The notes beneath the pieces were generated by a model. The model ran no database searches, had not been told where the DNA came from, and saw only the letters and a program-made list of their open reading frames with translations. Made by a program: the position numbers and the translations under genes. 64,000 nucleotides of DNA from NCBI GenBank assembly GCA_000146045.2, contig BK006947.3, positions 512,001 through 576,000 on the forward strand, given 5' to 3'. Positions 6,846-56,217 of the stretch are shown in pieces. Source of the stretch: TPA_inf: Saccharomyces (Eukaryota). How positions within the stretch are numbered: the stretch's first letter is position 1; the number at the start of each line of letters is the position of its first letter.

Positions 6846-7098
6846 TGTTGAGAGGTTGGTTTGATTTTTGCTTTGGGTACGCTTGGCTGTTTCGTGTTGG
6901 GAGAATCCGTAGCACTAATGAGTAGTGGAACGAGTTGGGGGTAGTTATATAGTAGATCAACTCGTGCTCTGCTGGCTATAAAAGGGGTTCTTTGTTGAGG
7001 AACGGCCGAAATGGCGGTGTTTGATTGGGCCGCAGCCGGCAAAAAGCACCGGAACCGTGAAAAAAGCTCGTCTGACGCGGAAACGTGCGGCAAAAAAT

Positions 7099-7162
7099 CT
7101 CCGCGACGGGGAATTGAACCCCGATCTGGCACGCGACAAGCGCCCATTCTGACCATTAAACT
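7099..7162 (-). tRNA. tD(GUC): tRNA-Asp(GUC) gene, 3' 64 nt (D-loop through acceptor 3' end), cut off from its 5' end by the Ty1 insertion
   Basis: The reverse complement reads GTTTAATGGTCAGAATGGGCGCTTGTCGCGTGCCAGATCGGGGTTCAATTCCCCGTCGCGGAG, which is yeast tRNA-Asp nt 9-72. A T6 Pol III terminator (reverse complement of 7092-7098) follows the 3' end. The Ty1 LTR begins right at 7163. Confidence 0.9.
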
Positions 7163-7496
7163 TGTTGGAATAAAAATCAACTATCATCTACTAACTAGTA
7201 TTTACGTTACTAGTATATTATCATATACGGTGTTAGAAGATGACGCAAATGATGAGAAATAGTCATCTAAATTAGTGGAAGCTGAAACGCAAGGATTGAT
7301 AATGTAATAGGATCAATGAATATTAACATATAAAACGATGATAATAATATTTATAGAATTGTGTAGAATTACAGATTTCCTTTTATGGATTCCTAAATCC
7401 TCGAGGAGAACTTCTAGTATATTCTGTATACCTAATATTATAGCCTTTATCAACAATGGAATCCCAACAATTATCTCAACATTCACCCATTTCTCA
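7163..7496 (+). repeat. Ty1 5' LTR (delta), 334 bp
   Basis: It runs from TGTTGG to TCTCA. Visual comparison with the 3' LTR at 12729-13062 found no differences. Confidence 0.9.
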
Positions 7497-8778
7497 TGGT
7501 AGCGCCTGTGCTTCGGTTACTTCTAAGGAAGTCCACACAAATCAAGATCCGTTAGACGTTTCAGCTTCCAAAATTCAAGAATATGATAAGGCTTCCACTA
7601 AGGCTAACTCTCAACAGACAACAACACCTGCTTCATCAGCTGTTCCAGAGAACCCCCATCATGCCTCTCCTCAAACTGCTCAGTCACATTCACCACAGAA
7701 TGGGCCGTACCCACAGCAGTGCATGATGACCCAAAACCAAGCCAATCCATCTGATTGGTCATTTTACGGACGCCCATCTATGATTCCGTATACACCTTAT
7801 CAAATGTCGCCTATGTACTTTCCACCTGGGCCACATTCACAGTTTCCGCAGTATCCATCATCAGTTGGAACGCCTCTGAGCACTCCATCACCTGAGTCAG
7901 GTAATACATTTACTGATTCATCCTCAGCGGACTCTGATATGACATCCACTAAAAAATATGTCAGACCACCACCAATGTTAACCTCACCTAATGACTTTCT
8001 AAATTGGGTTAAAACATACATCAAATTTTTACAAAACTCGAATCTCGGTGGTATTATTCCGACAGTAAACGGAAAACCCGTACGTCAGATCACTGATGAT
8101 GAACTCACCTTCTTGTATAACACTTTTCAAATATTTGCTCCATCTCAATTCCTACCTACCTGGGTCAAAGACATCCTATCCGTTGATTATACGGATATCA
8201 TGAAAATTCTTTCCAAAAGTATTGAAAAAATGCAATCTGATACCCAAGAGGCAAACGACATTGTGACCCTGGCAAATTTGCAATATAATGGCAGTACACC
8301 TGCAGATGCATTTGAAACAAAAGTCACAAACATTATCGACAGACTGAACAATAATGGCATTCATATCAATAACAAGGTCGCATGCCAATTAATTATGAGA
8401 GGTCTATCTGGCGAATATAAATTTTTACGCTACACACGTCATCGACATCTAAATATGACAGTCGCTGAACTGTTCTTAGATATCCATGCTATTTATGAAG
8501 AACAACAGGGATCGAGAAACAGCAAACCTAATTACAGGAGAAATCCGAGTGATGAGAAGAATGATTCTCGCAGCTATACAAATACAACCAAACCCAAAGT
8601 TATAGCTCGGAATCCTCAAAAAACAAATAATTCGAAATCGAAAACAGCCAGGGCTCACAATGTATCCACATCTAATAACTCTCCCAGCACGGACAACGAT
8701 TCCATCAGTAAATCAACTACTGAACCGATTCAATTGAACAATAAGCACGACCTTCATCTTAGGCCAGAAACTTACTGA
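7456..8778 (+). CDS. TYA: Ty1 TYA (Gag), 440 aa; the ATG lies inside the 5' LTR
   Basis: [26 protein letters not shown]... is canonical Ty1 Gag. The ORF is intact. Confidence 0.95.
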
Positions 8779-11700
8779 ATCTACAGTAAATCATACTAAT
8801 CATTCTGATGATGAACTCCCTGGACACCTCCTTCTCGATTCAGGAGCATCACGAACCCTTATAAGATCTGCTCATCACATACACTCAGCATCATCTAATC
8901 CTGACATAAACGTAGTTGATGCTCAAAAAAGAAATATACCAATTAACGCTATTGGTGACCTACAATTTCACTTCCAGGACAACACCAAAACATCAATAAA
9001 GGTATTGCACACTCCTAACATAGCCTATGACTTACTCAGTTTGAATGAATTGGCTGCAGTAGATATCACAGCATGCTTTACCAAAAACGTCTTAGAACGA
9101 TCTGACGGCACTGTACTTGCACCTATCGTAAAATATGGAGACTTTTACTGGGTATCTAAAAAGTACTTGCTTCCATCAAATATCTCCGTACCCACCATCA
9201 ATAATGTCCATACAAGTGAAAGTACACGCAAATATCCTTATCCTTTCATTCATCGAATGCTTGCGCATGCCAATGCACAGACAATTCGATACTCACTTAA
9301 AAATAACACCATCACGTATTTTAACGAATCAGATGTCGACTGGTCTAGTGCTATTGACTATCAATGTCCTGATTGTTTAATCGGCAAAAGCACCAAACAC
9401 AGACATATCAAAGGTTCACGACTAAAATACCAAAATTCATACGAACCCTTTCAATACCTACATACTGACATATTTGGTCCAGTTCACAACCTACCAAAGA
9501 GTGCACCATCCTATTTCATCTCATTTACTGATGAGACAACAAAATTCCGTTGGGTTTATCCATTACACGACCGTCGCGAGGACTCTATCCTCGATGTTTT
9601 TACTACGATACTAGCTTTTATTAAGAACCAGTTTCAGGCCAGTGTCTTGGTTATACAAATGGACCGTGGTTCTGAGTATACTAACAGAACTCTCCATAAA
9701 TTCCTTGAAAAAAATGGTATAACTCCATGCTATACAACCACAGCGGATTCCCGAGCACATGGAGTCGCTGAACGGCTCAACCGTACCTTATTAGATGACT
9801 GCCGTACTCAACTGCAATGTAGTGGTTTACCGAACCATTTATGGTTCTCTGCAATCGAATTTTCTACTATTGTGAGAAATTCACTAGCTTCACCTAAAAG
9901 CAAAAAATCTGCAAGACAACATGCTGGCTTGGCAGGACTTGATATCAGTACTTTGTTACCTTTCGGTCAACCTGTTATCGTCAATGATCACAACCCTAAC
10001 TCCAAAATACATCCTCGTGGCATCCCAGGCTACGCTCTACATCCGTCTCGAAACTCTTATGGATATATCATCTATCTTCCATCCTTAAAGAAGACAGTAG
10101 ATACAACTAACTATGTTATTCTTCAGGGCAAGGAATCCAGATTAGATCAATTCAATTACGACGCACTCACTTTCGATGAAGACTTAAACCGTTTAACTGC
10201 TTCATATCAATCGTTCATTGCGTCAAATGAGATCCAACAATCCGATGATCTTAACTTCCAATCTGACATCGAACTACATCCTGAGCAACCGAGAAATGTC
10301 CTTTCAAAAGCTGTGAGTCCAACCGATTCCACACCTCCGTCAACTCATACTGAAGATTCGAAACGTGTTTCTAAAACCAATATTCGCGCACCCAGAGAAG
10401 TTGATCCCAACATATCTAAATCTGATATCCTTCCATCAAAGAAGAGATCTAGCACCCCCCAAATTTCCGATATCGAGAGTACTGGTTCGGGTGGTATGCA
10501 TAGATTAGATGTTCCTTTACTTGCTCCCATGTCCCAATCTAACACACATGAATCGTCGCACACCAGTAAATCTAAAGATTTCAGACACTCAGACTCGTAC
10601 AGTGACAATGAGACTAATCATACAAACGTACCAATATCCAGTACGGGTGGTACCAATAATAAAACTGTTCCGCAGACAAGCGAACAGGAGACTGAGAAAA
10701 GGATTATACACCGTTCACCTTCGATCGATACTTCCTCATCAGAAAGTAATTCACTACACCACGTCGTTCCTATCAAAACGTCAGATACCTGTCCTAAGGA
10801 GAATACAGAGGAATCTATAATTGCTGATCTTCCACTTCCCGATCTGCCTCCAGAACCTCCTACCAAATTATCAGACTCCTTTAAAGAACTTCCACCGATC
10901 AATTCTCGTCAAACTAATTCCAGTTTGGGTGGTATTGGTGACTCTAATGCCTATACTACTATCAACAGTAAGAAAAGATCATTAGAAGATAATGAAACTG
11001 AAATTAAGGTATCACGAGACACATGGAATACTAAGAATATGCGTAGTTTAGAACCTCCGAGATCGAAGAAACGAATTCACCTGATTGCAGCTGTAAAAGC
11101 AGTAAAATCAATCAAACCAATACGGACAACCTTACGATACGATGAGGCAATCACCTATAATAAAGATATTAAAGAAAAAGAAAAATATATCGAGGCATAC
11201 CACAAAGAAGTCAATCAACTGTTGAAGATGAAAACTTGGGACACTGACAAATATTATGACAGAAAAGAAATAGACCCTAAAAGAGTAATAAATTCAATGT
11301 TTATCTTCAACAGGAAACGTGACGGTACTCATAAAGCTAGATTTGTTGCAAGAGGTGATATTCAGCATCCTGACACTTACGACTCAGGCATGCAATCCAA
11401 TACCGTACATCACTATGCATTGATGACATCCCTGTCACTTGCATTAGACAATAACTACTATATTACACAATTAGACATATCTTCGGCATATTTGTATGCA
11501 GACATCAAAGAAGAATTATACATAAGACCTCCACCACATTTAGGAATGAATGATAAGTTGATACGTTTGAAGAAATCACTTTATGGTTTGAAACAAAGTG
11601 GTGCAAACTGGTATGAAACGATCAAATCATATCTGATTGAACAATGTGATATGGAAGAAGTTCGCGGATGGTCATGCGTATTTAAGAATAGTCAAGTAAC

Positions 11701-12706
11701 AATTTGCTTATTCGTTGATGATATGATATTGTTCAGCAAAGACTTAAATGCAAATAAGAAAATCATAACAACACTCAAGAAACAATACGATACAAAGATA
11801 ATAAATCTGGGTGAAAGTGATAACGAAATTCAGTACGACATACTTGGATTAGAGATCAAATATCAAAGAAGCAAGTACATGAAATTAGGTATGGAAAAAT
11901 CTTTGACAGAAAAATTACCCAAACTAAACGTTCATTTAAATCCAAAAGGAAAAAAACTTAGCGCTCCAGGTCAACCAGGTCTTTATATAGACCAGGATGA
12001 ACTAGAAATAGATGAAGATGAATACAAAGAGAAGGTACATGAAATGCAAAAGTTGATTGGTCTAGCTTCATATGTTGGATATAAATTTAGATTTGACTTA
12101 CTATACTACATCAACACACTTGCTCAACATATACTATTCCCCTCTAGGCAAGTTTTAGACATGACATATGAGTTAATACAATTCATGTGGGACACTAGAG
12201 ATAAACAACTGATATGGCACAAAAACAAACCTACCAAGCCAGATAATAAACTAGTCGCAATAAGCGATGCTTCATATGGTAACCAACCATATTACAAGTC
12301 ACAAATTGGTAACATTTTCCTACTCAACGGAAAAGTGATTGGAGGAAAGTCGACAAAGGCTTCGTTAACATGCACTTCAACTACAGAAGCAGAAATACAC
12401 GCAGTCAGTGAAGCTATTCCGCTATTGAATAACCTCAGTCACCTTGTGCAAGAACTTAACAAGAAACCAATTATTAAAGGCTTACTTACTGATAGTAGAT
12501 CAACGATCAGTATAATTAAGTCTACAAATGAAGAGAAATTTAGAAACAGATTTTTTGGCACAAAGGCAATGAGACTTAGAGATGAAGTATCAGGTAATAA
12601 TTTATACGTATACTACATCGAGACCAAGAAGAACATTGCTGATGTGATGACAAAACCTCTTCCGATAAAAACATTTAAACTATTAACTAACAAATGGATT
12701 CATTAG
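7456..12706 (+). CDS. TYB: Ty1 TYA-TYB (Gag-Pol) fusion made by +1 ribosomal frameshift at CTT-AGG-C (8758-8764); Pol encodes protease, integrase and RT/RNase H
   Basis: The +1 frame is open from 8762 to the TAG at 12704-12706 as far as checked; no stop codon occurs between 8762 and 9005, while the rest of that span rests on the provided ORF track. The protease motif [13 protein letters not shown], the integrase zinc finger plus DDE motif, and YVDDM in the RT are present. Confidence 0.9.
8758..8764 (+). promoter_or_regulatory. Ty1 programmed +1 frameshift site (CTT AGG C heptamer)
   Basis: The exact heptamer sits at the Gag/Pol overlap. The Gag frame ends 14 nt downstream at 8776-8778. Confidence 0.9.
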
Positions 12707-12728
12707 ATCTATTACATTATGGGTGGTA

Positions 12729-13062
12729 TGTTGGAATAAAAATCAACTATCATCTACTAACTAGTATTTACGTTACTAGTATATTATCATATACGGTGTT
12801 AGAAGATGACGCAAATGATGAGAAATAGTCATCTAAATTAGTGGAAGCTGAAACGCAAGGATTGATAATGTAATAGGATCAATGAATATTAACATATAAA
12901 ACGATGATAATAATATTTATAGAATTGTGTAGAATTACAGATTTCCTTTTATGGATTCCTAAATCCTCGAGGAGAACTTCTAGTATATTCTGTATACCTA
13001 ATATTATAGCCTTTATCAACAATGGAATCCCAACAATTATCTCAACATTCACCCATTTCTCA
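12729..13062 (+). repeat. Ty1 3' LTR (delta), 334 bp
   Basis: It is preceded by the PPT and ends TCTCA right before the TSD AAACT. Confidence 0.9.
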
Positions 13063-13075
13063 AAACTATCACGGA
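13063..13075 (-). tRNA. tD(GUC): tRNA-Asp(GUC) gene, 5' 13 nt (acceptor 5' strand and start of the D-arm), separated from the rest of the gene by Ty1
   Basis: The reverse complement of 13063-13075 is TCCGTGATAGTTT, which is tRNA-Asp nt 1-13. Joining it to the 7099-7162 fragment, minus one TSD copy, rebuilds an uninterrupted 72-nt tRNA-Asp. Confidence 0.85.
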
Positions 13076-34412: not shown

Positions 34413-34737
34413 CTACTACACTTCAAAATGAAATACCCCTGCATCACCAGATTCATCAACCTAAACGTACAAGACGTATGAAACACGTATGAAACAGTTG
34501 TTGCGAAAAAAACAAGATTAAGTATTTTCAAAGCCCCGGTTGCCTTGATGAACCTAAACGTATAAATAGTTGAGCAATCAGTTTAGCTCCGAAGATCTAT
34601 GCTTCCACCCTTTAGTCAGATTTAGATCCTATATAGATTATATGGGATAAGTAACATTCCGTCAATCAAGCTGCTCTTCTGACAGGTATTAATATTGTTA
34701 AGACGGCTAGTATTGACTAACTTCATGACACAACCAC
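34413..34737 (+). repeat. Diverged sigma-like (Ty3-related) solo LTR next to the canonical sigma
   Basis: Blocks align with sigma (CAAAATGAAATA, CACGTATGAAACA, GTATAAATAG, AGTTTAGCTCCGAAGATC..GCTTCCACC, GATAAGTAACATTCCGT) at roughly 70% identity. The boundaries are approximate. Confidence 0.45.
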
Positions 34738-35077
34738 TGTTGTATCTCAAAATGAGATATGTCAGTATGACAATACGTCACCCTGAACGTTCATAAAACA
34801 CATATGAAACAACCTTATAACAAAACGAACAACATGAGACAAAACCCGACCTTCCCTAGCTGAACTACCCAAAGTATAAATGCCTGAACAATTAGTTTAG
34901 ATCCGAGATTCCGCGCTTCCACCACTTAGTATGATTCATATTTTATATAATATATAAGATAAGTAACATTCCGTGAATTAATCTGATAAACCGTTTTGAC
35001 AACTGGTTACTTCCCTAAGACTGTTTATATTAGGATTGTCAAGACACTCCGGTATTACTCGAGCCCGTAATACAACA
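34738..35077 (+). repeat. Ty3 sigma solo LTR (340 bp) with TSD ACCAC (34733-34737 and 35078-35082), ending 16 bp upstream of tRNA-Pro
   Basis: It runs from TGTTGTATCTCAAAATGAGATATGTCAG to CCCGTAATACAACA, a near-perfect sigma. The position at about -17 of a Pol III gene is the characteristic Ty3 target. Confidence 0.9.
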
Positions 35078-35093
35078 ACCACACGAAATAATC

Positions 35094-35196
35094 GGGCGTG
35101 TGGTCTAGTGGTATGATTCTCGCTTTGGGCGACTTCCTGCCTAAACAGGAAGACAAAGCATGCGAGAGGCCCTGGGTTCAATTCCCAGCTCGCCCC
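35094..35196 (+). tRNA. tP(UGG): tRNA-Pro(UGG) with a 31-nt intron (35130-35160)
   Basis: The exons are GGGCGTGTGGTCTAGTGGTATGATTCTCGCTTTGGG and TGCGAGAGGCCCTGGGTTCAATTCCCAGCTCGCCCC. The anticodon is TGG, a B-box GGTTCAATTCC is present, and a T-run terminator follows. Confidence 0.95.
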
Positions 35197-43047: not shown

Positions 43048-44832
43048 ATGAGTAGTATTGTTAATAAAAGTGGTACACGCTTTGCCCCTAAAGTAAGGCA
43101 GCGTAGAGCCGCCACTGGAGGAACACCAACTCCAAAGCCAAGAACCCCTCAACTTTTCATTCCCGAAAGTAAAGAAATAGAAGAAGATAATAGTGATAAC
43201 GATAAAGGTGTTGATGAAAATGAAACGGCTATTGTTGAGAAACCTTCGCTAGTTGGAGAACGCTCTTTAGAAGGCTTTACCTTAACCGGCACTAATGGAC
43301 ATGATAATGAAATAGGTGATGAGGGCCCCATTGACGCCTCGACCCAGAACCCCAAAGCAGACGTTATAGAAGATAATGTGACTCTAAAACCGGCACCCTT
43401 GCAAACCCACCGAGACCAGAAGGTACCGAGATCCAGCAGATTAGCTTCACTGAGTAAGGACAACGAAAGTCGTCCAAGTTTTAAACCGTCATTTCTCGAT
43501 TCTTCCAGTAACAGTAATGGGACTGCGCGACGTTTATCTACAATCTCCAATAAGCTTCCTAAAAAGATAAGGCTTGGAAGCATTACAGAAAACGATATGA
43601 ATCTGAAAACTTTCAAAAGACATAGGGTTTTGGGCAAACCTTCTTCGGCTAAGAAACCAGCAGGTGCACACAGAATCAGTATTGTCTCCAAAATTTCTCC
43701 ACCTACGGCAATGACCGATTCTTTGGACAGGAATGAATTTTCGTCAGAAACTTCTACATCAAGAGAAGCTGATGAGAATGAAAATTATGTGATTAGCAAA
43801 GTCAAAGATATCCCGAAAAAAGTGAGAGATGGGGAGTCTGCTAAATATTTTATCGATGAAGAGAATTTTACGATGGCAGAGTTGTGTAAGCCAAACTTTC
43901 CTATTGGTCAAATATCTGAAAACTTTGAAAAATCTAAAATGGCAAAAAAGGCAAAATTGGAAAAGAGAAGGCATCTTAGAGAACTCAGAATGCGCGCACG
44001 ACAAGAATTTAAACCACTACACTCATTGACTAAAGAAGAACAGGAAGAAGAAGAGGAGAAGAGAAAGGAAGAAAGAGATAAACTACTCAACGCTGACATT
44101 CCTGAGTCAGACCGCAAAGCACATACGGCGATCCAACTGAAGCTTAACCCTGATGGTACTATGGCAATTGATGAAGAGACTATGGTTGTTGACAGACACA
44201 AAAATGCTAGTATCGAAAATGAATATAAAGAAAAAGTTGATGAAAACCCTTTTGCCAATCTTTATAATTACGGGTCGTATGGTAGGGGTTCATACACAGA
44301 CCCGTGGACTGTGGAAGAAATGATAAAGTTCTACAAGGCGCTTTCTATGTGGGGGACAGATTTCAATTTGATCTCACAATTATACCCTTATAGATCAAGA
44401 AAACAAGTGAAGGCCAAATTCGTTAATGAGGAGAAGAAACGTCCAATATTGATTGAATTGGCCCTTCGATCTAAGCTACCGCCTAATTTTGATGAGTATT
44501 GCTGCGAAATCAAGAAGAACATTGGTACAGTAGCAGACTTCAACGAGAAACTAATCGAATTACAAAACGAGCACAAACATCATATGAAGGAAATCGAAGA
44601 AGCAAAGAATACGGCAAAGGAGGAAGACCAAACTGCACAAAGGCTAAATGATGCTAATTTGAATAAAAAGGGATCTGGTGGTATTATGACAAATGATTTG
44701 AAAGTTTATAGAAAAACGGAAGTTGTTCTGGGTACAATTGATGACTTGAAAAGGAAGAAACTCAAAGAAAGGAATAATGATGACAATGAGGATAATGAAG
44801 GAAGTGAAGAAGAGCCTGAGATTGATCAATAA
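43048..44832 (+). CDS. BDP1: Bdp1 (TFIIIB B'' subunit), 594 aa
   Basis: The SANT domain (WTVEEMIKFYKALSMWGTDFNLISQLYPYRSRKQVKAKF) is present. The length matches. Confidence 0.9.
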   Translation: MSSIVNKSGTRFAPKVRQRRAATGGTPTPKPRTPQLFIPESKEIEEDNSDNDKGVDENETAIVEKPSLVGERSLEGFTLTGTNGHDNEIGDEGPIDASTQNPKADVIEDNVTLKPAPLQTHRDQKVPRSSRLASLSKDNESRPSFKPSFLDSSSNSNGTARRLSTISNKLPKKIRLGSITENDMNLKTFKRHRVLGKPSSAKKPAGAHRISIVSKISPPTAMTDSLDRNEFSSETSTSREADENENYVISKVKDIPKKVRDGESAKYFIDEENFTMAELCKPNFPIGQISENFEKSKMAKKAKLEKRRHLRELRMRARQEFKPLHSLTKEEQEEEEEKRKEERDKLLNADIPESDRKAHTAIQLKLNPDGTMAIDEETMVVDRHKNASIENEYKEKVDENPFANLYNYGSYGRGSYTDPWTVEEMIKFYKALSMWGTDFNLISQLYPYRSRKQVKAKFVNEEKKRPILIELALRSKLPPNFDEYCCEIKKNIGTVADFNEKLIELQNEHKHHMKEIEEAKNTAKEEDQTAQRLNDANLNKKGSGGIMTNDLKVYRKTEVVLGTIDDLKRKKLKERNNDDNEDNEGSEEEPEIDQ

Positions 44833-48692: not shown

Positions 48693-48765
48693 TGCTTCCA
48701 ATCGGATTTGAACCGATGATCTCCACATTACTAGTGTGGCGCCTTACCAACTTGGCCATAGAAGC
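48693..48765 (-). tRNA. tT(AGU): tRNA-Thr(AGU)
   Basis: The reverse complement is GCTTCTATGGCCAAGTTGGTAAGGCGCCACACTAGTAATGTGGAGATCATCGGTTCAAATCCGATTGGAAGCA. A T-run terminator is at 48683-48691 on the minus strand. Confidence 0.95.
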
Positions 48766-48959: not shown

Positions 48960-50032
48960 ATGGTAACGATAACAACATATATGAAAAGTAGTGTTCTAGG
49001 AAACTTCGATAGGGGAGAAAGTACGTAAAAAAAATAATTTTGAGTTGGATTCGAAGTTCCATTAATATCTTGGATAATTAAGTTTGCTGCGTGAGAGACA
49101 GGCAGATTCGGCTTCACAGGAATAAACTCCTATAATTTAAAGGAACTTGTTAGTGTTAGCACTATAAGTAAGAAAAAGTAAATTCTGGCAGTGTTGCTTT
49201 TAATCGCAATAATATTTGATTTACATTCAAACAGTTTCATATACCTCTTTGATAGAACATATTTGCATATGTGTTTATTTGTTTTTTATTTTTTTTTGAT
49301 TACTTCTTTTCAAAAACTAAATGTGAACAAAGAAGAAAAAGGAGTATAAAAGAATAAATAATAGCGGTATTACGTGTGTTGGAAAAAGAATCATAGATCG
49401 TCAATGGACTAGTATTTGTATTACCAGTATTATTATAATATGGATCGTAAGAAGATAACATAAAACATAGAAACAGTTGTCAAATCCTTGCACAATTCTA
49501 ACATTCATTATCCTATTACATTATCAATCCTTGCATTTCAACTTTCCATCAAATTTAATGATTTGTTTTCAATCTTTATGTCTTCTTTTTACATCGCATA
49601 TGATACTGTTGGAACGAGAGTAATTAATAGTAACATGAGTTGCTATGGTAACAATCTAATGCTTACATCGTATATTAATGTACAACTCGTATACGTTTAA
49701 GTGTGATTGCGCCTATTGCAGAAGGAATGTTAAACGAGAAGCTCAGACAATACTGAAGCTGTGTTAAAGATCTATTAGTTGAACATGATATGGTAGGTAC
49801 ATATATGAGGAATATGAGTCGTCACATCAATGTATAGTAACTACCGGAATCACTATTATATTGGTCATGATTAATATGACCAATCGGCGTGTGTTTTATA
49901 TACCTCTCTTATTTAGTATAAGAAGATCAGTACTCACTTCTTCATTAATACTAATTTTTAACCTCTAATTATCAACAGATACCATGCTAGTATTACAAAT
50001 AATACTAAACAGATGATGTTAGAGTTTCATTC
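48960..50032. repeat. Mosaic of degenerate solo-LTR fragments between tRNA-Thr and the Ty2: an unclassified fragment (~48960-49110), a degenerate delta (~49490-49650, minus orientation) and another LTR-like end (~49780-49980)
   Basis: The 49505-49640 fragment aligns with the delta internal region (CATT.ATCCTATTACATTATCAATCCTTGC.TTTCA.CTTCCA...). The reverse complement of 49780-49980 begins TGTTGATAATTAGAGG. The 48990-49075 core recurs at 13243-13330. Confidence 0.4.
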
Positions 50033-50386
50033 TGAAAAGAATGTGGATTTTGATGTAATTGTTGGGATTCCATTTTTTATAAGGCAATAATATTAGGTAT
50101 GTAGATATACTAGAAGTTCTCCTCGAGGATTTAGGAATCCATAAAAGGGAATCTGCAATTCTATACAATTCTATAAATATTATTATCATCATTTTATATG
50201 TTAATATTCATTGATCCTATTACATTATCAATCCTTGCGTTTCAGCTTCCACTAATTTAGATGACTATTTCTCATCATTTGCGTCATCTTCTAACACCGT
50301 ATATGATAATATACTAGTAACGTAAATACTAGTTAGTAGATGATAGTTGATTTTTATTCCAACATACCACCCATAATGTAATAGAT

Positions 50387-53300
50387 CTAATGAATCCATT
50401 TGTTAGTTAATAGTTTAAATGTTTTTATCGGAAGAGGTTTTGTCATCACATCAGCAATGTTCTTCTTGGTCTCGATGTAGTATACGTATAAATTATTACC
50501 TGATACTTCATCTCTAAGTCTCATTGCCTTTGTGCCAAAAAATCTGTTTCTAAATTTCTCTTCATTTGTAGACTTAATTATACTGATCGTTGATCTACTA
50601 TCAGTAAGTAAGCCTTTAATAATTGGTTTCTTGTTAAGTTCTTGCACAAGGTGACTGAGGTTATTCAATAGCGGAATAGCTTCACTGACTGCGTGTATTT
50701 CTGCTTCTGTAGTTGAAGTGCATGTTAACGAAGCCTTTGTCGACTTTCCTCCAATCACTTTTCCGTTGAGTAGGAAAATGTTACCAATTTGTGACTTGTA
50801 ATATGGTTGGTTACCATATGAAGCATCGCTTATTGCGACTAGTTTATTATCTGGCTTGGTAGGTTTGTTTTTGTGCCATATTAATTGTTTATCTCTAGTG
50901 TCCCACATGAATTGTATTAACTCATATGTCATGTCTAAAACTTGCCTAGAGGGGAATAGTATATGTTGAGCAAGTGTGTTGATGTAGTATAGTAAGTCAA
51001 ATCTAAATTTATATCCAACATATGAAGCTAGACCAATCAACTTTTGCATTTCATGTACTTTCTCTTTGTATTCATCTTCATCTATTTCTAGTTCATCCTG
51101 GTCTATATAATGACCTGGTTGACCTGGAGCTCTAAGTTTCTTTCCTTTTGGGTTCAAAGGTACGTTTAGTTTGGGTAATTTTTCTGTCAAGGATTTTTCC
51201 ATACCTAATTTCATGTACTTGCTTCTTTGATATTTGATCTCTAATCCAAGTATGTCGTACTGAATGTCGTTATCACTTTCACCCAGATTTATTATCTTTG
51301 TATCGTATTGTTTCTTGAGTGTTGTTATGATTTTCTTATTTGCATTTAAGTCTTTGCTGAATAATATCATATCATCAACGAATAAGCAAATTGTTACTTG
51401 ACTATTTTTAAATACGCATGACCATCCGCGAACTTCTTGCATGTCGCAACAATTTATTAAATATGATTTAATGGTTTCATACCAGTTTGCACCACTTTGT
51501 TTCAAACCATAGAGTGATTTTCTCAAACGTAGTAATTTATCATTCAAACCTAAATGTGGTGGAGGTCTTATGTATAATTCTTCTTTGATATCAGCATATA
51601 AGTAAGCAGAGGATATGTCCAGCTGTGTGATATAATAGTCGTTGTCTAATGCGATTGACAGTGACGTCATCAGTGCATAGTGATGTACGGTATTGGATTG
51701 CATATCAGAATCATATGTATCGGGGTGTTGAATGTCGCCTCTTGCAACAAATCTAGCTTTGTGTGTACCATCACGTTTCTTGTTAAATATAAACATTGAG
51801 TTTATTACTTTTTTAGGATCTATGTCATTTCTATCATAATATTTGTTTGTATCCCAAGTGTTCATTTTCAATAGTTGGCTAATTTCTTTATGATAAGCTT
51901 CAACATATCTGTCTTTTTCTTTGTTGTCTTTATTATAAGTAATTGCTTCATCATATCTTAAGGTCGTTCGAACTGGTTTGATCGATTTCACTCCTTTTAT
52001 TGCTGCAATTAAATTTATGCGTTTCTTCGATCTTGGTGGTTCCAGACTTCTCATATTCTTATTATTCCATGTGTCTCGGGATACCTCAATTTCAGTTTCA
52101 TTATCTTCTAATGATCTTTTCTTACTTTTGGTAGTAGTCAGAACATTAGAATCATCCATACCACCCAAACTGGAATTAGTCTGACGAGAGTGTATGTGTG
52201 GAATATCTTTTGAAACATCAGAAGTGTCCGTAGGAGATTGATGGGTTAAGTCAGGAAGTGGGAGGTCGTCAAGAATAGAATCAGCCGTAACATTTTTTGA
52301 GGATTTGTCAGGCATTATATTAGGAGTCGCATGGTCAGAAGATCGATATTCTGGCGGATCCGTATCAATGGAGGGTGTATTATCACATACAGCCTTTGTT
52401 TCTATGGAGATGATGGGAGTAGTGGATTCACTGTTGGACGAACGGTCATCTATTGAGGGCGTACTATTTGTAGTCCTGTATTTGATATTTGTATCACTAT
52501 TTCGTTGAATATATGGTTCCTCCGTACCACCCAAACGTGTAGTTTTGATGTTTTCAAGTCCATAATTAACTCTATCCTGTGAGGTCAAATCAATCATATC
52601 ATTGGGACTACCAGGTCGCTTTTGGTTTCGTGCAGTGAAGGTAGACGAGTGTCTAGGTGAAGTAGTATCTGATTCAACGGTACCAACCATTTCGGTACTC
52701 TCTTTATTAATGATATGGGGTGTACGAGATCGTATAGTAGATGGAAGAATATTGTATTCAGATATGTCGGCATCAACTTCTTTTGGTGCACGTACTTTTT
52801 GGACTGGTTCCTTGTCTAATTGTAAAGGGTTTATTGATTGGGACGAGAAGTCGTTCACTAGAGGATCAGAGTTTATTTCAATCTCCGATTGATAGTCATG
52901 ATCAGATTCTGTATTTTGATCATATGACTGCTCCGTTTCATTTTGTTCAATAAAAGATTGGTTATGGGCTGTTAAACGATTGAGATCATCATCAAAAGTG
53001 AGTGTATCGTAGTCGAACTGGTCCAATTTCGTTTGCTTGTTTTGTAATATAACGTAATTGGTAGTATCTACTGTCTTTTTTAATGATGGAAGATAGATAA
53101 TATAGCCATAAGAGTTTCGTGACGGATGTAAGGCGTAACCTGGAATGCCACGAGGATGTATTTTCGAGTCGGGATTATGGTTGTTAACTATAACCGGTTG
53201 ACCGAAAGGTAGTATAGTAGTAATGTCCAGTCCAGCTAAACCTGCATGTTGTCTTGCGGATTTATCGTTTTTTGGTGAGACTAATGAATTTCTGATTATA

Positions 53301-54427
53301 GTAGAAAATTCGACTGCTGAGAACCATAGATGATTTGGTAGACCACTGCAATGAAGCAGTGTGCGACAATCGTTTAATAAAGTACGATTTAATCGTTCAG
53401 CGACACCGTGTGCTCTAGAATCTGCCGTGGTTGTATAGCATGCAGTAATACCTCTGTTCGTAAAGAACTTATGAAGAGTTTTGTTAGTGTACTCGGAGCC
53501 ACGATCCATCTGGATAACTAGAACGCGAGCATTGAATTGGTTCTTAATAAATGCTAATATCGATGTAAAAACATTGAGGATAGATTCTTCACGACGGTCG
53601 TGTAATGGGTACACCCATTGGAATCTGGTTTTCTCATCTGTAAACGATATAAAGTAAGAAGGTGCACTTTTCGGTAAGTGATGTACAGGACCAAATATAT
53701 CGGTATGCAAGTACTGAAAAGGCTCATATGATTCTTGGTACTTTAGTCGTGATCCTTTGACATGTCTATGTTTCGTGCTTTTGCCGATTAGACAGTCAGG
53801 ACATTGATATGTGCTAGCGTTAGACCATTCAATATCCGATTCCTTCAAATATGTAACTGCATTCTTCTTAAGAGACTTCTGAATACTTCGGAAGTTAGCA
53901 TGTCCAAGCATTCGATGTATTAACGGATATGGATATTTATTTACGCTTTTGCTTTTGTTGACGTTGTTTATTGTTAGCTTTGAAATGTGCGAAGGAATTA
54001 GGTATTTTTTAGATAACCAGTAAAAGTCTCCATGTTTGACTATGGGAGCTAGTACTGTACCATCCGATCTTTCTAAAGTGTTTCTGGTAAAGCAGGCAGT
54101 AATATTTTGATTAGCCAGCTCACTCAAACTTAATAGATCATAGGCTATGTTTGGTGTGTGTAGTGCTTTTATTGATGTTTTGGTGCCGTTCTGAAAGTTG
54201 AAGTGAAGATTACCAATGGCATTTATAGGAATGTCTTGTTTTTGAGCATCGACTATGTTTATTTCAGAATTGGGTGTTGCATGGTGTAAATAATGGGCTG
54301 ATCTGACAAGCGTTTGCGAAGCTCCTGAATCAATAAGAAGGTGATCAGGTAGTTCGTCATTCGAGTCTACTGTGTGTGTTGGCTTAGATTCTTTCTGTTG
54401 CTGGCCTAAGACTAAGTTCGTTGTCAT
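50387..54427 (-). CDS. TYB: Ty2 TYB (Pol: protease, integrase, RT/RNase H) reading frame, expressed as a Gag-Pol fusion by +1 frameshifting
   Basis: The ORF is open for 1,346 codons and overlaps the Gag 3' end by 44 nt. Its C-terminal ~560 aa are near-identical to the Ty1 Pol at 11050-12706. Confidence 0.85.
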
Positions 54428-55701
54428 CGCTTAAGTATTGTGATGAAACGGTTGATTCATTAATGTGATCATTGTTCACCCTTGAGAATTTACTAGATGT
54501 AGCAATATTGTGAGCTTTTGCTGCTCTTGGTTTTGAACTATTTGTTCTCTGATAATTACGAGTTGTAACCTTTGTGTTAGTCGTGTTTGGAGATGTGCGA
54601 GAAACATTTTTGTATTCGCTGTGTTGTTTGTATTGGGACGGTTTATTTAGATTCATGATTTTATTTTCGTCATATATTAACTGAATTTCAGCGAATAATT
54701 GGGAAAGTTTCATGTTCGTTTTGGTACGATATTGATTACGTAGGTATTTGAAGTCACCGGATAGACCTTTAAGTATTAGTTGACAGGCCAATCTGTCGCT
54801 AACATTGATATTGTTTTCTTTTAGCCTCTGAATGATCGTACTGACTGTAATTTCAAATGTATCAGCAGATGTACTTCCGTCGTACTCAAGGTTGGCAAGA
54901 GCTATCCAATCCTTTAATTCTTGATTGTTAGTTTGCATTTTGGACACACTTTTACAAAGGACTGTAAGGATGTCAGCATAATTAATTTCTAAAATTTGTT
55001 TTACCCATGTTGGCAATAAATGAAATGGGGCAAATGCTTGGAAGGTATTGTATATATACGCATGTTCTTCATAAGTCATTTGTCTTTTGATTTCACCCTG
55101 GTCATTTGGAATGATGTCACCGAGATTAGAGTTCTTCAAAAATCTGATGTAAAATTTAACCCATGTAGAAAAGTTTTCTTCTGATGTTAAAGTGTGTGGT
55201 GGTAAGACGTTATTTCCCACCTTTGTCTTAGCTTGAGGTATTTCAGAGTGTTGATTTTTTAAATCGATTGGATCAGGTGAGGAAGTACTCAGTGGTGGGA
55301 TATACCGTGGCAACGGATAGTGTGGGTCCGGTTGATAATACGCAGGTGACGTTTGATAATGTGAACACGTCATCATAGATGGTTGTTGGTAATGTGCCCA
55401 GTTAGAGGCCATAGCTTTGTTTGGGGTCATCATGCCGTGCTGTTGGTACTGTCCATTCTGTGGAGGTGGTACTGAAGCAGGTTGAGGAGAGACATGATGA
55501 TGGTTCTCTGGAACAGCTGATGTCCCAGGTGTTGTCTCTTGTTGAGAATTAACCTTAGTGGAATCTCTATCAAATTCCGGTAAATTGGAAGCTGAAACGG
55601 CTAACGGATCTTGATTTGATGGGACTTCCTTAGAAGTAACCGAAGCATAGGCGCTACCATGAAGAAAAATGTGGATTTTGATGTAATTGTTGGGATTCCA
55701 T
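54384..55701 (-). pseudogene. TYA: Ty2 TYA (Gag) whose conserved LTR ATG (reverse complement at 55699-55701) is put out of frame by a 1-nt insertion in the 5' LTR
   Basis: From the conserved ATG the frame reads [15 protein letters not shown] (TAG at 55654-55656). The Gag body, from ...[14 protein letters not shown] onward, is in a different frame. The 5' LTR end reads CCACATTTTTCTTCA, one nt longer than the same element's 3' LTR (CCACATTCTTTTCA). Confidence 0.6.
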
Positions 55702-56114
55702 TTTTTATAAGGCAATAATATTAGGTATGTAGATATACTAGAAGTTCTCCTCGAGGATTTAGGAATCCATAAAAGGGAATCTGCAATTCTATACAATTCT
55801 ATAAATATTATTATCATCATTTTATATGTTAATATTCATTGATCCTATTACATTATCAATCCTTGCGTTTCAGCTTCCACTAATTTAGATGACTATTTCT
55901 CATCATTTGCGTCATCTTCTAACACCGTATATGATAATATACTAGTAACGTAAATACTAGTTAGTAGATGATAGTTGATTTTTATTCCAACACATTCCAA
56001 TACCACTGATAAGTACATTCTGCATGTCTATTTATAAAACCTTCTTTAAGACAAATATGCTATTTATCCTTTGATAACAATTTCCTGTGAGACAGAAATC
56101 ACCATAAAATAATC

Positions 56115-56217
56115 GGGCGTGTGGTCTAGTGGTATGATTCTCGCTTTGGGCGACTTCCTGCCTAAACAGGAAGACAAAGCATGCGAGAGGCCCTGGGTTC
56201 AATTCCCAGCTCGCCCC
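56115..56217 (+). tRNA. tP(UGG): tRNA-Pro(UGG), second copy, identical to 35094-35196 including the 31-nt intron (56151-56181)
   Basis: The 103-nt sequence is identical to the first copy, and a T-run follows. The 5' flank differs from copy 1 (no sigma; a Ty2 LTR lies 122 bp upstream). Confidence 0.95.

Follow-up and report, generated by a model that had tools for sequence, protein, structure and literature searches.

The window, i.e. the whole stretch of 64,000 nucleotides that was analyzed, contains the POR1–VAC7 intergenic region of Saccharomyces cerevisiae S288C chromosome XIV: POR1 (NP_014343.1) and VAC7 (NP_014344.3) match the S288C proteins exactly, and COX5A matches the yeast protein at 153/153 positions. 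This region harbors a Ty1 element of 5900 bp (7163–13062), YNLWTy1-2 or Ty1-NL2, which begins with TGTTGG, ends with TTCTCA and is bordered on each side by a piece of the tRNA-Asp gene tD(GUC)N. The gene is located about 250 bp upstream of POR1, whose ATG lies 254 bp from the tRNA remnant. The features of the locus are the following:

7092–7097, minus strand: Pol III terminator, six Ts (tRNA-sense strand) separated from nt 72 by a single A (reads ...GCGGAG a tttttt gcc)
7099–7162, minus strand: 3' fragment of tD(GUC)N, nt 9–72 (exact 64-nt match; Rfam RF00005)
7110–7120, minus strand: intact B-box, GGTTCAATTCC, the TFIIIC tauB binding site
7153–7162, minus strand: remainder of the A-box, tRNA nt 9–18, AGTTTAATGG
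7158–7162, no strand: target-site duplication AAACT, left copy (tRNA nt 13–9)
7163–7496, plus strand: Ty1 5' LTR (delta), 334 bp, TG...CA, identical to the 3' LTR at 334/334 positions
7456–8778, plus strand: TYA (Gag), YNL054W-A, 440 aa
7497–7506, plus strand: primer-binding site TGGTAGCGCC, adjoining the 5' LTR
8758–8764, plus strand: +1 ribosomal frameshift heptamer CTTAGGC (Ty nt 1596)
8762–12706, plus strand: TYB (Pol: protease, integrase, RT/RNase H), read after the frameshift; the fusion is YNL054W-B
12720–12728, plus strand: polypurine tract TGGGTGGTA, adjoining the 3' LTR
12729–13062, plus strand: Ty1 3' LTR, 334 bp
13063–13067, no strand: target-site duplication AAACT, right copy
13063–13075, minus strand: 5' fragment of tD(GUC)N, nt 1–13, still joined to its native upstream (TFIIIB) region

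The element displays the hallmarks of a Ty1 LTR retrotransposon (Pseudoviridae, Ty1/copia): LTRs, a target-site duplication, a primer-binding site, a polypurine tract, and TYA and TYB linked by a +1 frameshift. The primer-binding site TGGTAGCGCC is complementary to the 3' end of the initiator tRNA-Met. TYA residues 249–359 match PDB entry 7nlh ('Ty1 Gag p22', E=4.6e-66), which identifies a Ty1-type rather than a Ty2-type Gag. The TYB frame is open up to 12703, with a stop codon ending at 12706, and splicing the two frames at the heptamer yields a Gag-Pol of 1749 aa whose sequence matches UniProt Q99337 / NP_001268465.1, the Transposon Ty1-NL2 Gag-Pol polyprotein of S. cerevisiae S288C, exactly. 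As judged from its sequence, this copy is intact and still looks retrotransposition-competent. Note that a Ty2 is found 37 kb away (50033–55992) and ends 122 bp upstream of a tRNA-Pro gene; its alignment with the Ty1 is confined to the LTR region (first ~650 nt) and to some 2.2 kb at the 3' end. The window also contains two intron-containing tRNA-Pro genes, which were missed by ARAGORN and detected by Rfam.

The initial annotation had described a full-length Ty1 inside the body of a tRNA-Asp(GUC) gene, flanked on the left by tRNA nt 9–72 with an intact B-box and a terminator, and on the right by nt 1–13, with AAACT repeated at both junctions. Each of these readings is correct: the 64- and 13-nt flanks are the exact reverse complement of tRNA-Asp(GUC) nt 9–72 and nt 1–13, AAACT is read at 7158–7162 and at 13063–13067, and the two tRNA fragments overlap by exactly these 5 nt. 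The junction sequences of the occupied allele are TTTCTCAAAACTATCACGGA and CCATTAAACTTGTTGGAATA, and the boundary between the LTR and the 3' fragment reads TTATTCCAACA followed by AGTTTAATGG. The insertion point therefore lies at tRNA nt 9–13, i.e. at +9 to +13 in the transcribed body and not upstream of the coding sequence, with the Ty1 oriented head-to-head with the 3' tRNA fragment. ARAGORN called no tRNA at the split locus in the unmodified window. When the 5900-bp Ty1 and one AAACT were removed in silico, the resulting 72-mer was recognized as tRNA-Asp(gtc) with a normal cloverleaf, which is the outcome of the fold check that had been proposed for the excised sequence. The 3' fragment as it stands is also picked up by the Rfam tRNA model (7107–7162, minus strand, model positions 9–63, 34.8 bits for a gathering score of 29).

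Comparison with other strains, also proposed at the outset, did reveal empty sites: among the matches listed, the site is empty and the tRNA-Asp gene intact in 8 of 10 distinct S. cerevisiae assemblies. The 72-mer obtained in silico is string-identical to the intact orthologous gene in 8 other S. cerevisiae assemblies, so that the perfect 72-nt tRNA-Asp claimed to result from excision corresponds to real alleles, and the same 72-mer occupies the orthologous site in 4 assemblies of other Saccharomyces species. The 72-nt gene is syntenic, 243–253 bp upstream of POR1, in assemblies of S. kudriavzevii and of the S. eubayanus group. One empty allele (L009) aligns across the excision point over 2606 bp at 99.2%, with colinear flanks. 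A coincidental match of the flanks is excluded by the 64+13 nt of identity, the existence of empty alleles and this colinearity. In L001, L003, L006–L008 and L010, the intact tD(GUC) is preceded, at a distance of 15 nt, by a solo sigma bearing the GTCTT duplication; the S288C allele has no sigma.

The occupied site is found in at least four records (CP046094.1, CP127208.1, CM029086.1 and a Logan SRR12125344 contig), and every long contig with the exact S288C VAC7 allele has the site occupied. The same Ty1 junctions are present in the separate long assemblies L002/L011, L004 and L012; the Ty1 of L012 differs from that of the window at 1 of 5900 positions, and that of L002/L011 is 5894 bp long with fragmented ORF calls. 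In addition, a Logan short-read contig (L013) starts inside the LTR and crosses the right junction straight into AAACTATCACGGA; the short-read evidence consists of this one contig, 13 similar places having been left uninspected. Since the site is empty elsewhere and the tRNA gene is present in other species, the destruction of this ancestral copy is a recent event in the S288C lineage. That the insertion is evolutionarily recent also follows from the identity of the two LTRs, together with the polymorphism of the site among strains.

What remains of the promoter differs from what had been proposed in one respect. The B-box consensus of Pol III type 2 promoters is GGTTCGANTCC, and it is matched by GGTTCAATTCC at 7110–7120. 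In the intact gene, the A-box spans tRNA nt 8–18 (TAGTTTAATGG) and the Ty1 split falls within it; because of the target-site duplication, the fragment carrying the B-box retains 10 of the 11 A-box positions in a hybrid A-box, AAGTTTAATGG, composed of the adjoining LTR base and nt 9–18. The statement that the A-box and the B-box are 5.9 kb apart is thus inaccurate: what has been moved 5.9 kb off from the B-box fragment is nt 1–8, together with the transcription start and the TFIIIB-binding region that precedes it. At the other end, the A and six Ts that follow nt 72 span 7098–7092. A complete type 2 Pol III promoter is nevertheless absent, nt 1–8, the start site and the upstream DNA being replaced by the Ty1 LTR, and so is an uninterrupted 72-nt cloverleaf having both the GTC anticodon and a complete acceptor stem. 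Indeed, the hybrid 72-mer made of LTR and tRNA remnant has neither acceptor stem nor cloverleaf (MFE -18.6 vs -26.6 kcal/mol).

The locus has been described before. Patterson et al. 2019 (Genome Res 29:1298, PMC6673722) reported that YNLWTy1-2 lies in tD(GUC)N, the Ty1 insertion having 'occurred within the gene'. Their locus and ours are the same (Gag-Pol identical to Q99337, POR1 and VAC7 exact, same tRNA), with no substantive difference, except that they consider the A-box 'effectively removed' whereas nt 9–18 are retained on the B-box fragment in the sequence analyzed here. According to their article, which relays Harismendy 2003, tD(GUC)N is bound by Tfc1 (TFIIIC) and not by Brf1, in keeping with the earlier guess that TFIIIC might still bind the orphan B-box half. 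In the same article, Ty3 integrase was absent from this gene as well, and Ty3, which rarely targets the site, had hardly inserted there (0.67 +/- 0.35). As Tfc1 is bound and Brf1 and Ty3 integrase are absent in that account, the remnant behaves as a TFIIIC-only site that is no longer a retrotransposon target. The TFIIIC-bound remnant has the POR1 promoter on one side and the divergent Ty1 5' LTR on the other. Both the insertion and what it does to the binding of Pol III factors have therefore already been published: the observation is real and was correctly read, and it is not new. It carries little weight as a discovery because it concerns a feature of the reference yeast genome that has already been described.

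The sequence, the empty-site alleles and the literature agree on a full-length Ty1 integrated in the tD(GUC) gene body with a 5-bp duplication, and they also support the claim that it should inactivate this tRNA copy. The reading that we favor, with a probability of about 0.96, is that the tD(GUC)N gene between POR1 and VAC7 was broken by a single recent Ty1 integration in the S288C lineage, leaving a dead copy and a TFIIIC-only remnant; the sequence contains nothing that speaks against it. The ancestral gene was struck by an ordinary integrase-mediated insertion, with a staggered cut at tRNA nt 9–13, within the A-box, giving rise to the AAACT duplication. The 5' piece (nt 1–13) keeps the upstream region but has no usable internal promoter, and the 3' piece (nt 9–72) retains the terminator, the B-box and an almost complete A-box but lacks nt 1–8, the start site and the native TFIIIB-binding DNA. 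That the S288C copy is dead is in part demonstrated and in part deduced; the loss of the start site and of the TFIIIB DNA is the probable cause of the failure to assemble TFIIIB. The loss of the copy is presumably tolerated because the tD(GUC) family is multicopy.

The placement of TFIIIB is directed largely by TFIIIC and less by DNA sequence. TFIIIC might then place TFIIIB on the AT-rich LTR end, making the 3' remnant a working Pol III unit whose product, a 5'-aberrant tRNA-Asp-like RNA, would be degraded or have some other role. In favor of this, the remnant has the hybrid A-box AAGTTTAATGG as well as a B-box and a terminator, its Rfam score exceeds the gathering score, and TFIIIC is reported to be bound (PMC6673722). 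However, Brf1 was absent in two independent studies, as that article relates, and Ty3 insertion, which requires TFIIIB, is close to nil at this site (PMC6673722). Furthermore, the LTR end contains TTTTT on the tRNA-sense strand 10–14 nt before the junction (gatttttattccaaca followed by AGTTT), i.e. just downstream of the start site expected from the A-box, so that early termination is plausible, and the hybrid 72-mer could not form an acceptor stem. Given the T5 run and the published lack of Brf1 and of Ty3 targeting, we consider a transcribed remnant unlikely, with odds that are long against it.

The arrangement could also stem from Ty–Ty recombination or gene conversion, or from two separate partial tRNA genes, instead of one integration. 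Ectopic recombination is known for Ty elements, YNLWTy1-2 itself is reported to be used in rearrangements (PMC2712687 and PMC3291544), and a Ty2 is present in the window. These origins are nonetheless extremely improbable: AAACT is matched at both ends and is exactly the overlap between the tRNA fragments, the LTRs are 100% identical, the empty alleles hold one intact gene between colinear flanks, and other species carry the gene in synteny. Such origins are effectively ruled out by the matching duplication together with the empty sites. Least credible of all is misplacement of the Ty1 through repeat mis-assembly, of which Ty elements are classic causes and to which the 5894-bp element of L002/L011 might point, since it is ruled out by the identical junctions shared by independent assemblies (at least four separate records), the short reads across the right junction and the near-identity of the L012 element.

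A single integration into the gene body does depart from the usual targeting of Ty1, as the initial annotation had pointed out. [quoted passage not shown] Canonical insertions at tRNA genes involve the same family, a 5-bp duplication and association with a tRNA gene, as is the case here, and the Ty2 of the window is a textbook example of canonical upstream targeting. They spare the tRNA gene, however, whereas the Ty1 at +9 to +13 destroys its own targeting signal because it is inserted inside the normally nucleosome-depleted, factor-bound body. The position in the gene body is probably a rare off-target outcome of Pol III-tethered targeting. Ty3 has targeted the same tRNA gene in other strains, as shown by the solo sigma elements, but its insertions fall at the start site and leave the gene unharmed, in contrast to the Ty1 that broke the S288C allele.

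The remnant also resembles ETC (extra-TFIIIC) sites in that TFIIIC is reported on its B-box without TFIIIB or Pol III; yeast ETC sites, along with other partial Pol III complexes, were described by Moqtaderi & Struhl 2004, as cited in PMC6673722. ETC sites are conserved stand-alone B-boxes, whereas the remnant is what is left of a genuine tRNA gene that was broken recently and in a strain-specific manner.

A further consequence is doubtful, although conceivable: the remnant might happen to function as an insulator, or the Ty1 might be a ROAM-type modifier, either of which would alter POR1 expression in S288C-derived laboratory strains. If so, POR1 expression would differ from that of empty-site strains with an intact tRNA gene, possibly in a mating-type-dependent manner. 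A literature search for a link between POR1 and the Ty1 at the tD(GUC)N locus retrieved nothing relevant.

For work with S288C-derived strains, the tD(GUC)N gene listed in annotation tables is not a functional copy, which affects tRNA gene counts, tRNA adaptation indices and Pol III ChIP benchmarks. More generally, Ty1 targeting is not fail-safe, as an occasional strike on a Pol III gene body erases the very signal that attracted the element. A multicopy tRNA family buffers such strikes: an identical gene conserved at the exact same site across the Saccharomyces genus is dispensable in S288C. Finally, a tRNA gene that has been broken can live on as a site bound by TFIIIC alone.

The two ends of the inserted segment, TGTTGG at the start and TTCTCA at the finish, abut parts of a single tRNA-Asp(GUC) gene, tD(GUC)N:

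7099-7162, minus strand: 3' fragment of tRNA-Asp(GUC), nt 9-72 (junction reading and string comparison)
13063-13075, minus strand: 5' fragment of tRNA-Asp(GUC), nt 1-13 (junction reading and string comparison)
7158-7162 and 13063-13067: duplicated pentamer AAACT (string comparison)

Deletion in silico of positions 7163-13067 yielded a 72-mer that ARAGORN recognized as tRNA-Asp(gtc) with a normal cloverleaf; the split locus in the unmodified window gave no ARAGORN tRNA call. The Rfam tRNA model matches the 3' fragment (7107-7162, minus strand, model positions 9-63) with 34.8 bits, the gathering score being 29. Every statement of the initial annotation regarding the sequence was confirmed, i.e. 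the exact tRNA strings at the two Ty1 flanks, the AAACT duplication at both junctions and the recovery of a 72-nt tRNA-Asp upon excision of the element and one AAACT.

The element is 5900 bp long and its two LTRs (334 bp each) are 100% identical. Its internal features are as follows:

Directly 3' of the 5' LTR: primer-binding site, TGGTAGCGCC
Element nt 1596: +1 frameshift heptamer CTTAGGC
Directly before the 3' LTR: polypurine tract

TYA comprises 440 aa, the TYB frame is open up to the stop codon, and Gag matches solved 'Ty1 Gag p22' structures. With the two frames spliced at this heptamer, the product is 1749 aa long and exactly matches the 'Transposon Ty1-NL2 Gag-Pol polyprotein' of S. cerevisiae S288C (UniProt Q99337 / NP_001268465.1); most other S288C Ty1 copies of the same protein cluster encode 1755 aa, a six-residue difference. 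The flanking ORFs exactly match S288C POR1 (NP_014343.1) and VAC7 (NP_014344.3), and COX5A in the window is identical (153/153) to the yeast protein of PDB entries. Together with the Gag-Pol match, these identities therefore establish that the window is reference-strain chromosome XIV and the element YNLWTy1-2.

The split gene results from a single integrase-catalysed insertion of Ty1 into one tRNA gene, since the 5-bp duplication matches and the tRNA fragments overlap by exactly 5 nt. The same two features exclude both an assembly of the flanks from two separate tRNA gene fragments and a Ty-Ty recombination. Ty1 usually integrates on the upstream side of Pol III genes, into nucleosomal DNA within about 1 kb, via an integrase-AC40 interaction, and the tDNA body is nucleosome-depleted (PMC7459421, PMC5911963, PMC3545840), so that the gene-body position represents a rare off-target event. 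Two other elements of the window show, by contrast, the usual arrangement upstream of a tRNA gene:

50033-55992, minus strand: full-length Ty2-like element, 5960 bp, duplication CATTC
34738-35077: solo Ty3 sigma LTR, 340 bp, duplication ACCAC

The Ty2-like element, which lies 37 kb from YNLWTy1-2 in inverted orientation, has LTRs of 332 bp with 4 mismatches and aligns with Ty1 in two stretches only, the initial ~650 nt (LTR region) and the 3' ~2.2 kb. Its 5' LTR end occupies the canonical position relative to an intron-containing tRNA-Pro(UGG) gene (56115-56217, plus strand), at a distance of 122 bp on the upstream side; for the solo sigma and another such gene (35094-35196, plus strand), the upstream distance is 16 nt. 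Both genes were missed by ARAGORN as run on the window and detected by the Rfam model (48.7 bits each); an ARAGORN-only tRNA count for the window would be too low. A more diverged sigma-like fragment (34552-34673, 75% over 122 nt) is found just upstream of the solo sigma. Some 730 bp from tRNA-Thr(AGU) (48693-48765) there is a degraded delta LTR fragment (49499-49605; 109 nt aligned at 80% identity), probably left by an old Ty1 or Ty2. The window also contains a 594-aa ORF (43048-44832, plus strand), which, going by the gene order of chromosome XIV, would be BDP1, a TFIIIB subunit; if so, its location near a Pol III-related finding is mere coincidence.

The interpretation of the initial annotation finds support, except on one point of promoter anatomy. 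The A-box was said to be separated from the B-box by 5.9 kb. The insertion point actually falls within the A-box (nt 8-18, TAGTTTAATGG), and the duplication of nt 9-13 leaves 10 of its 11 positions (AAGTTTAATGG) on the same fragment as the B-box (GGTTCAATTCC) and the T6 terminator, so that the two boxes are not separated. This promoter-bearing half has lost the start site, the native region bound by TFIIIB, and nt 1-8, which form the acceptor stem's 5' strand; the other fragment consists only of nt 1-13 and the native upstream DNA. In place of the lost start region there is now the beginning of the Ty1 5' LTR, in reverse complement, and the resulting hybrid 72-mer has no tRNA fold. Read on the tRNA-sense strand, this part of the LTR has five consecutive T (TTTTT) 10-14 nt ahead of the junction; a Pol III transcript initiated at the normal spacing from the A-box might be terminated there.

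The literature already describes the Ty1 insertion, the inactivation that it causes and the TFIIIC that stays bound. Patterson et al. 2019 (Genome Res 29:1298, PMC6673722) report that in Harismendy et al. 2003 tD(GUC)N was bound by the TFIIIC subunit Tfc1 and devoid of Brf1. Their own data also show the locus without Brf1; Ty3 integrase is absent, Ty3 insertions are scarce (0.67 +/- 0.35), and survival of the strain is explained by the other tD(GUC) genes. Both predictions made from the sequence, inactivation of this tRNA copy and leftover TFIIIC binding at the B-box half, are thus borne out in print, the latter as relayed in that paper. There is a modest possibility that Ty1 and the TFIIIC-bound remnant, which lies 254 bp from the POR1 ATG, alter POR1 expression; a literature search on such an effect returned nothing.

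Comparison with other strains, proposed in the initial annotation as a search for an empty site, was carried out on contigs encoding the same POR1 protein, which represent ten distinct places. Eight are empty (L001, L003, L005-L010), with VAC7 and POR1 about 1.7 kb apart and an intact tRNA-Asp(gtc) at the orthologous position, string-identical to the reconstructed 72-mer. After excision, the window allele is colinear with that of L009 across the junction (2606 bp, 99.2%). The remaining two (L002, L004) carry Ty1 with identical junctions. The site is also occupied in every long contig with the exact S288C VAC7 allele (L011, and L012 representing eight similar places), the L012 element showing one difference in 5900 positions from that of the window; the one short-read contig examined (L013, which has 13 similar places besides) starts within the LTR and continues TTTCTCA/AAACTATCACGGA. 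Among the assemblies examined, the insertion was seen only in those with S288C-type alleles.

In most empty-site strains, a reverse-oriented solo Ty3 sigma with a GTCTT duplication sits upstream of the tRNA gene, 15 nt from its nt 1:

L001 9321-9661: solo Ty3 sigma near the intact tD(GUC), also present in L003, L006, L007, L008 and L010

The GTCTT site is unoccupied in the S288C window and in L009. In L005, about 54 bp of low-complexity filler (9613-9666; a G run, a T run and unrelated short sequence) stand where other strains carry sigma, and might reflect misassembly or a scar left by a deletion. With sigma at GTCTT and Ty1 at AAACT, one tRNA gene thus bears two independent retroelement insertions that are polymorphic within the species.

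In assemblies of S. kudriavzevii and of the S. eubayanus group, the identical 72-nt tRNA gene precedes POR1 by 243-253 bp. Given this syntenic gene in other species, the identical LTRs and the pattern of empty and occupied alleles, sequence comparison shows that Ty1 recently destroyed an ancestral, genus-wide tRNA gene copy.
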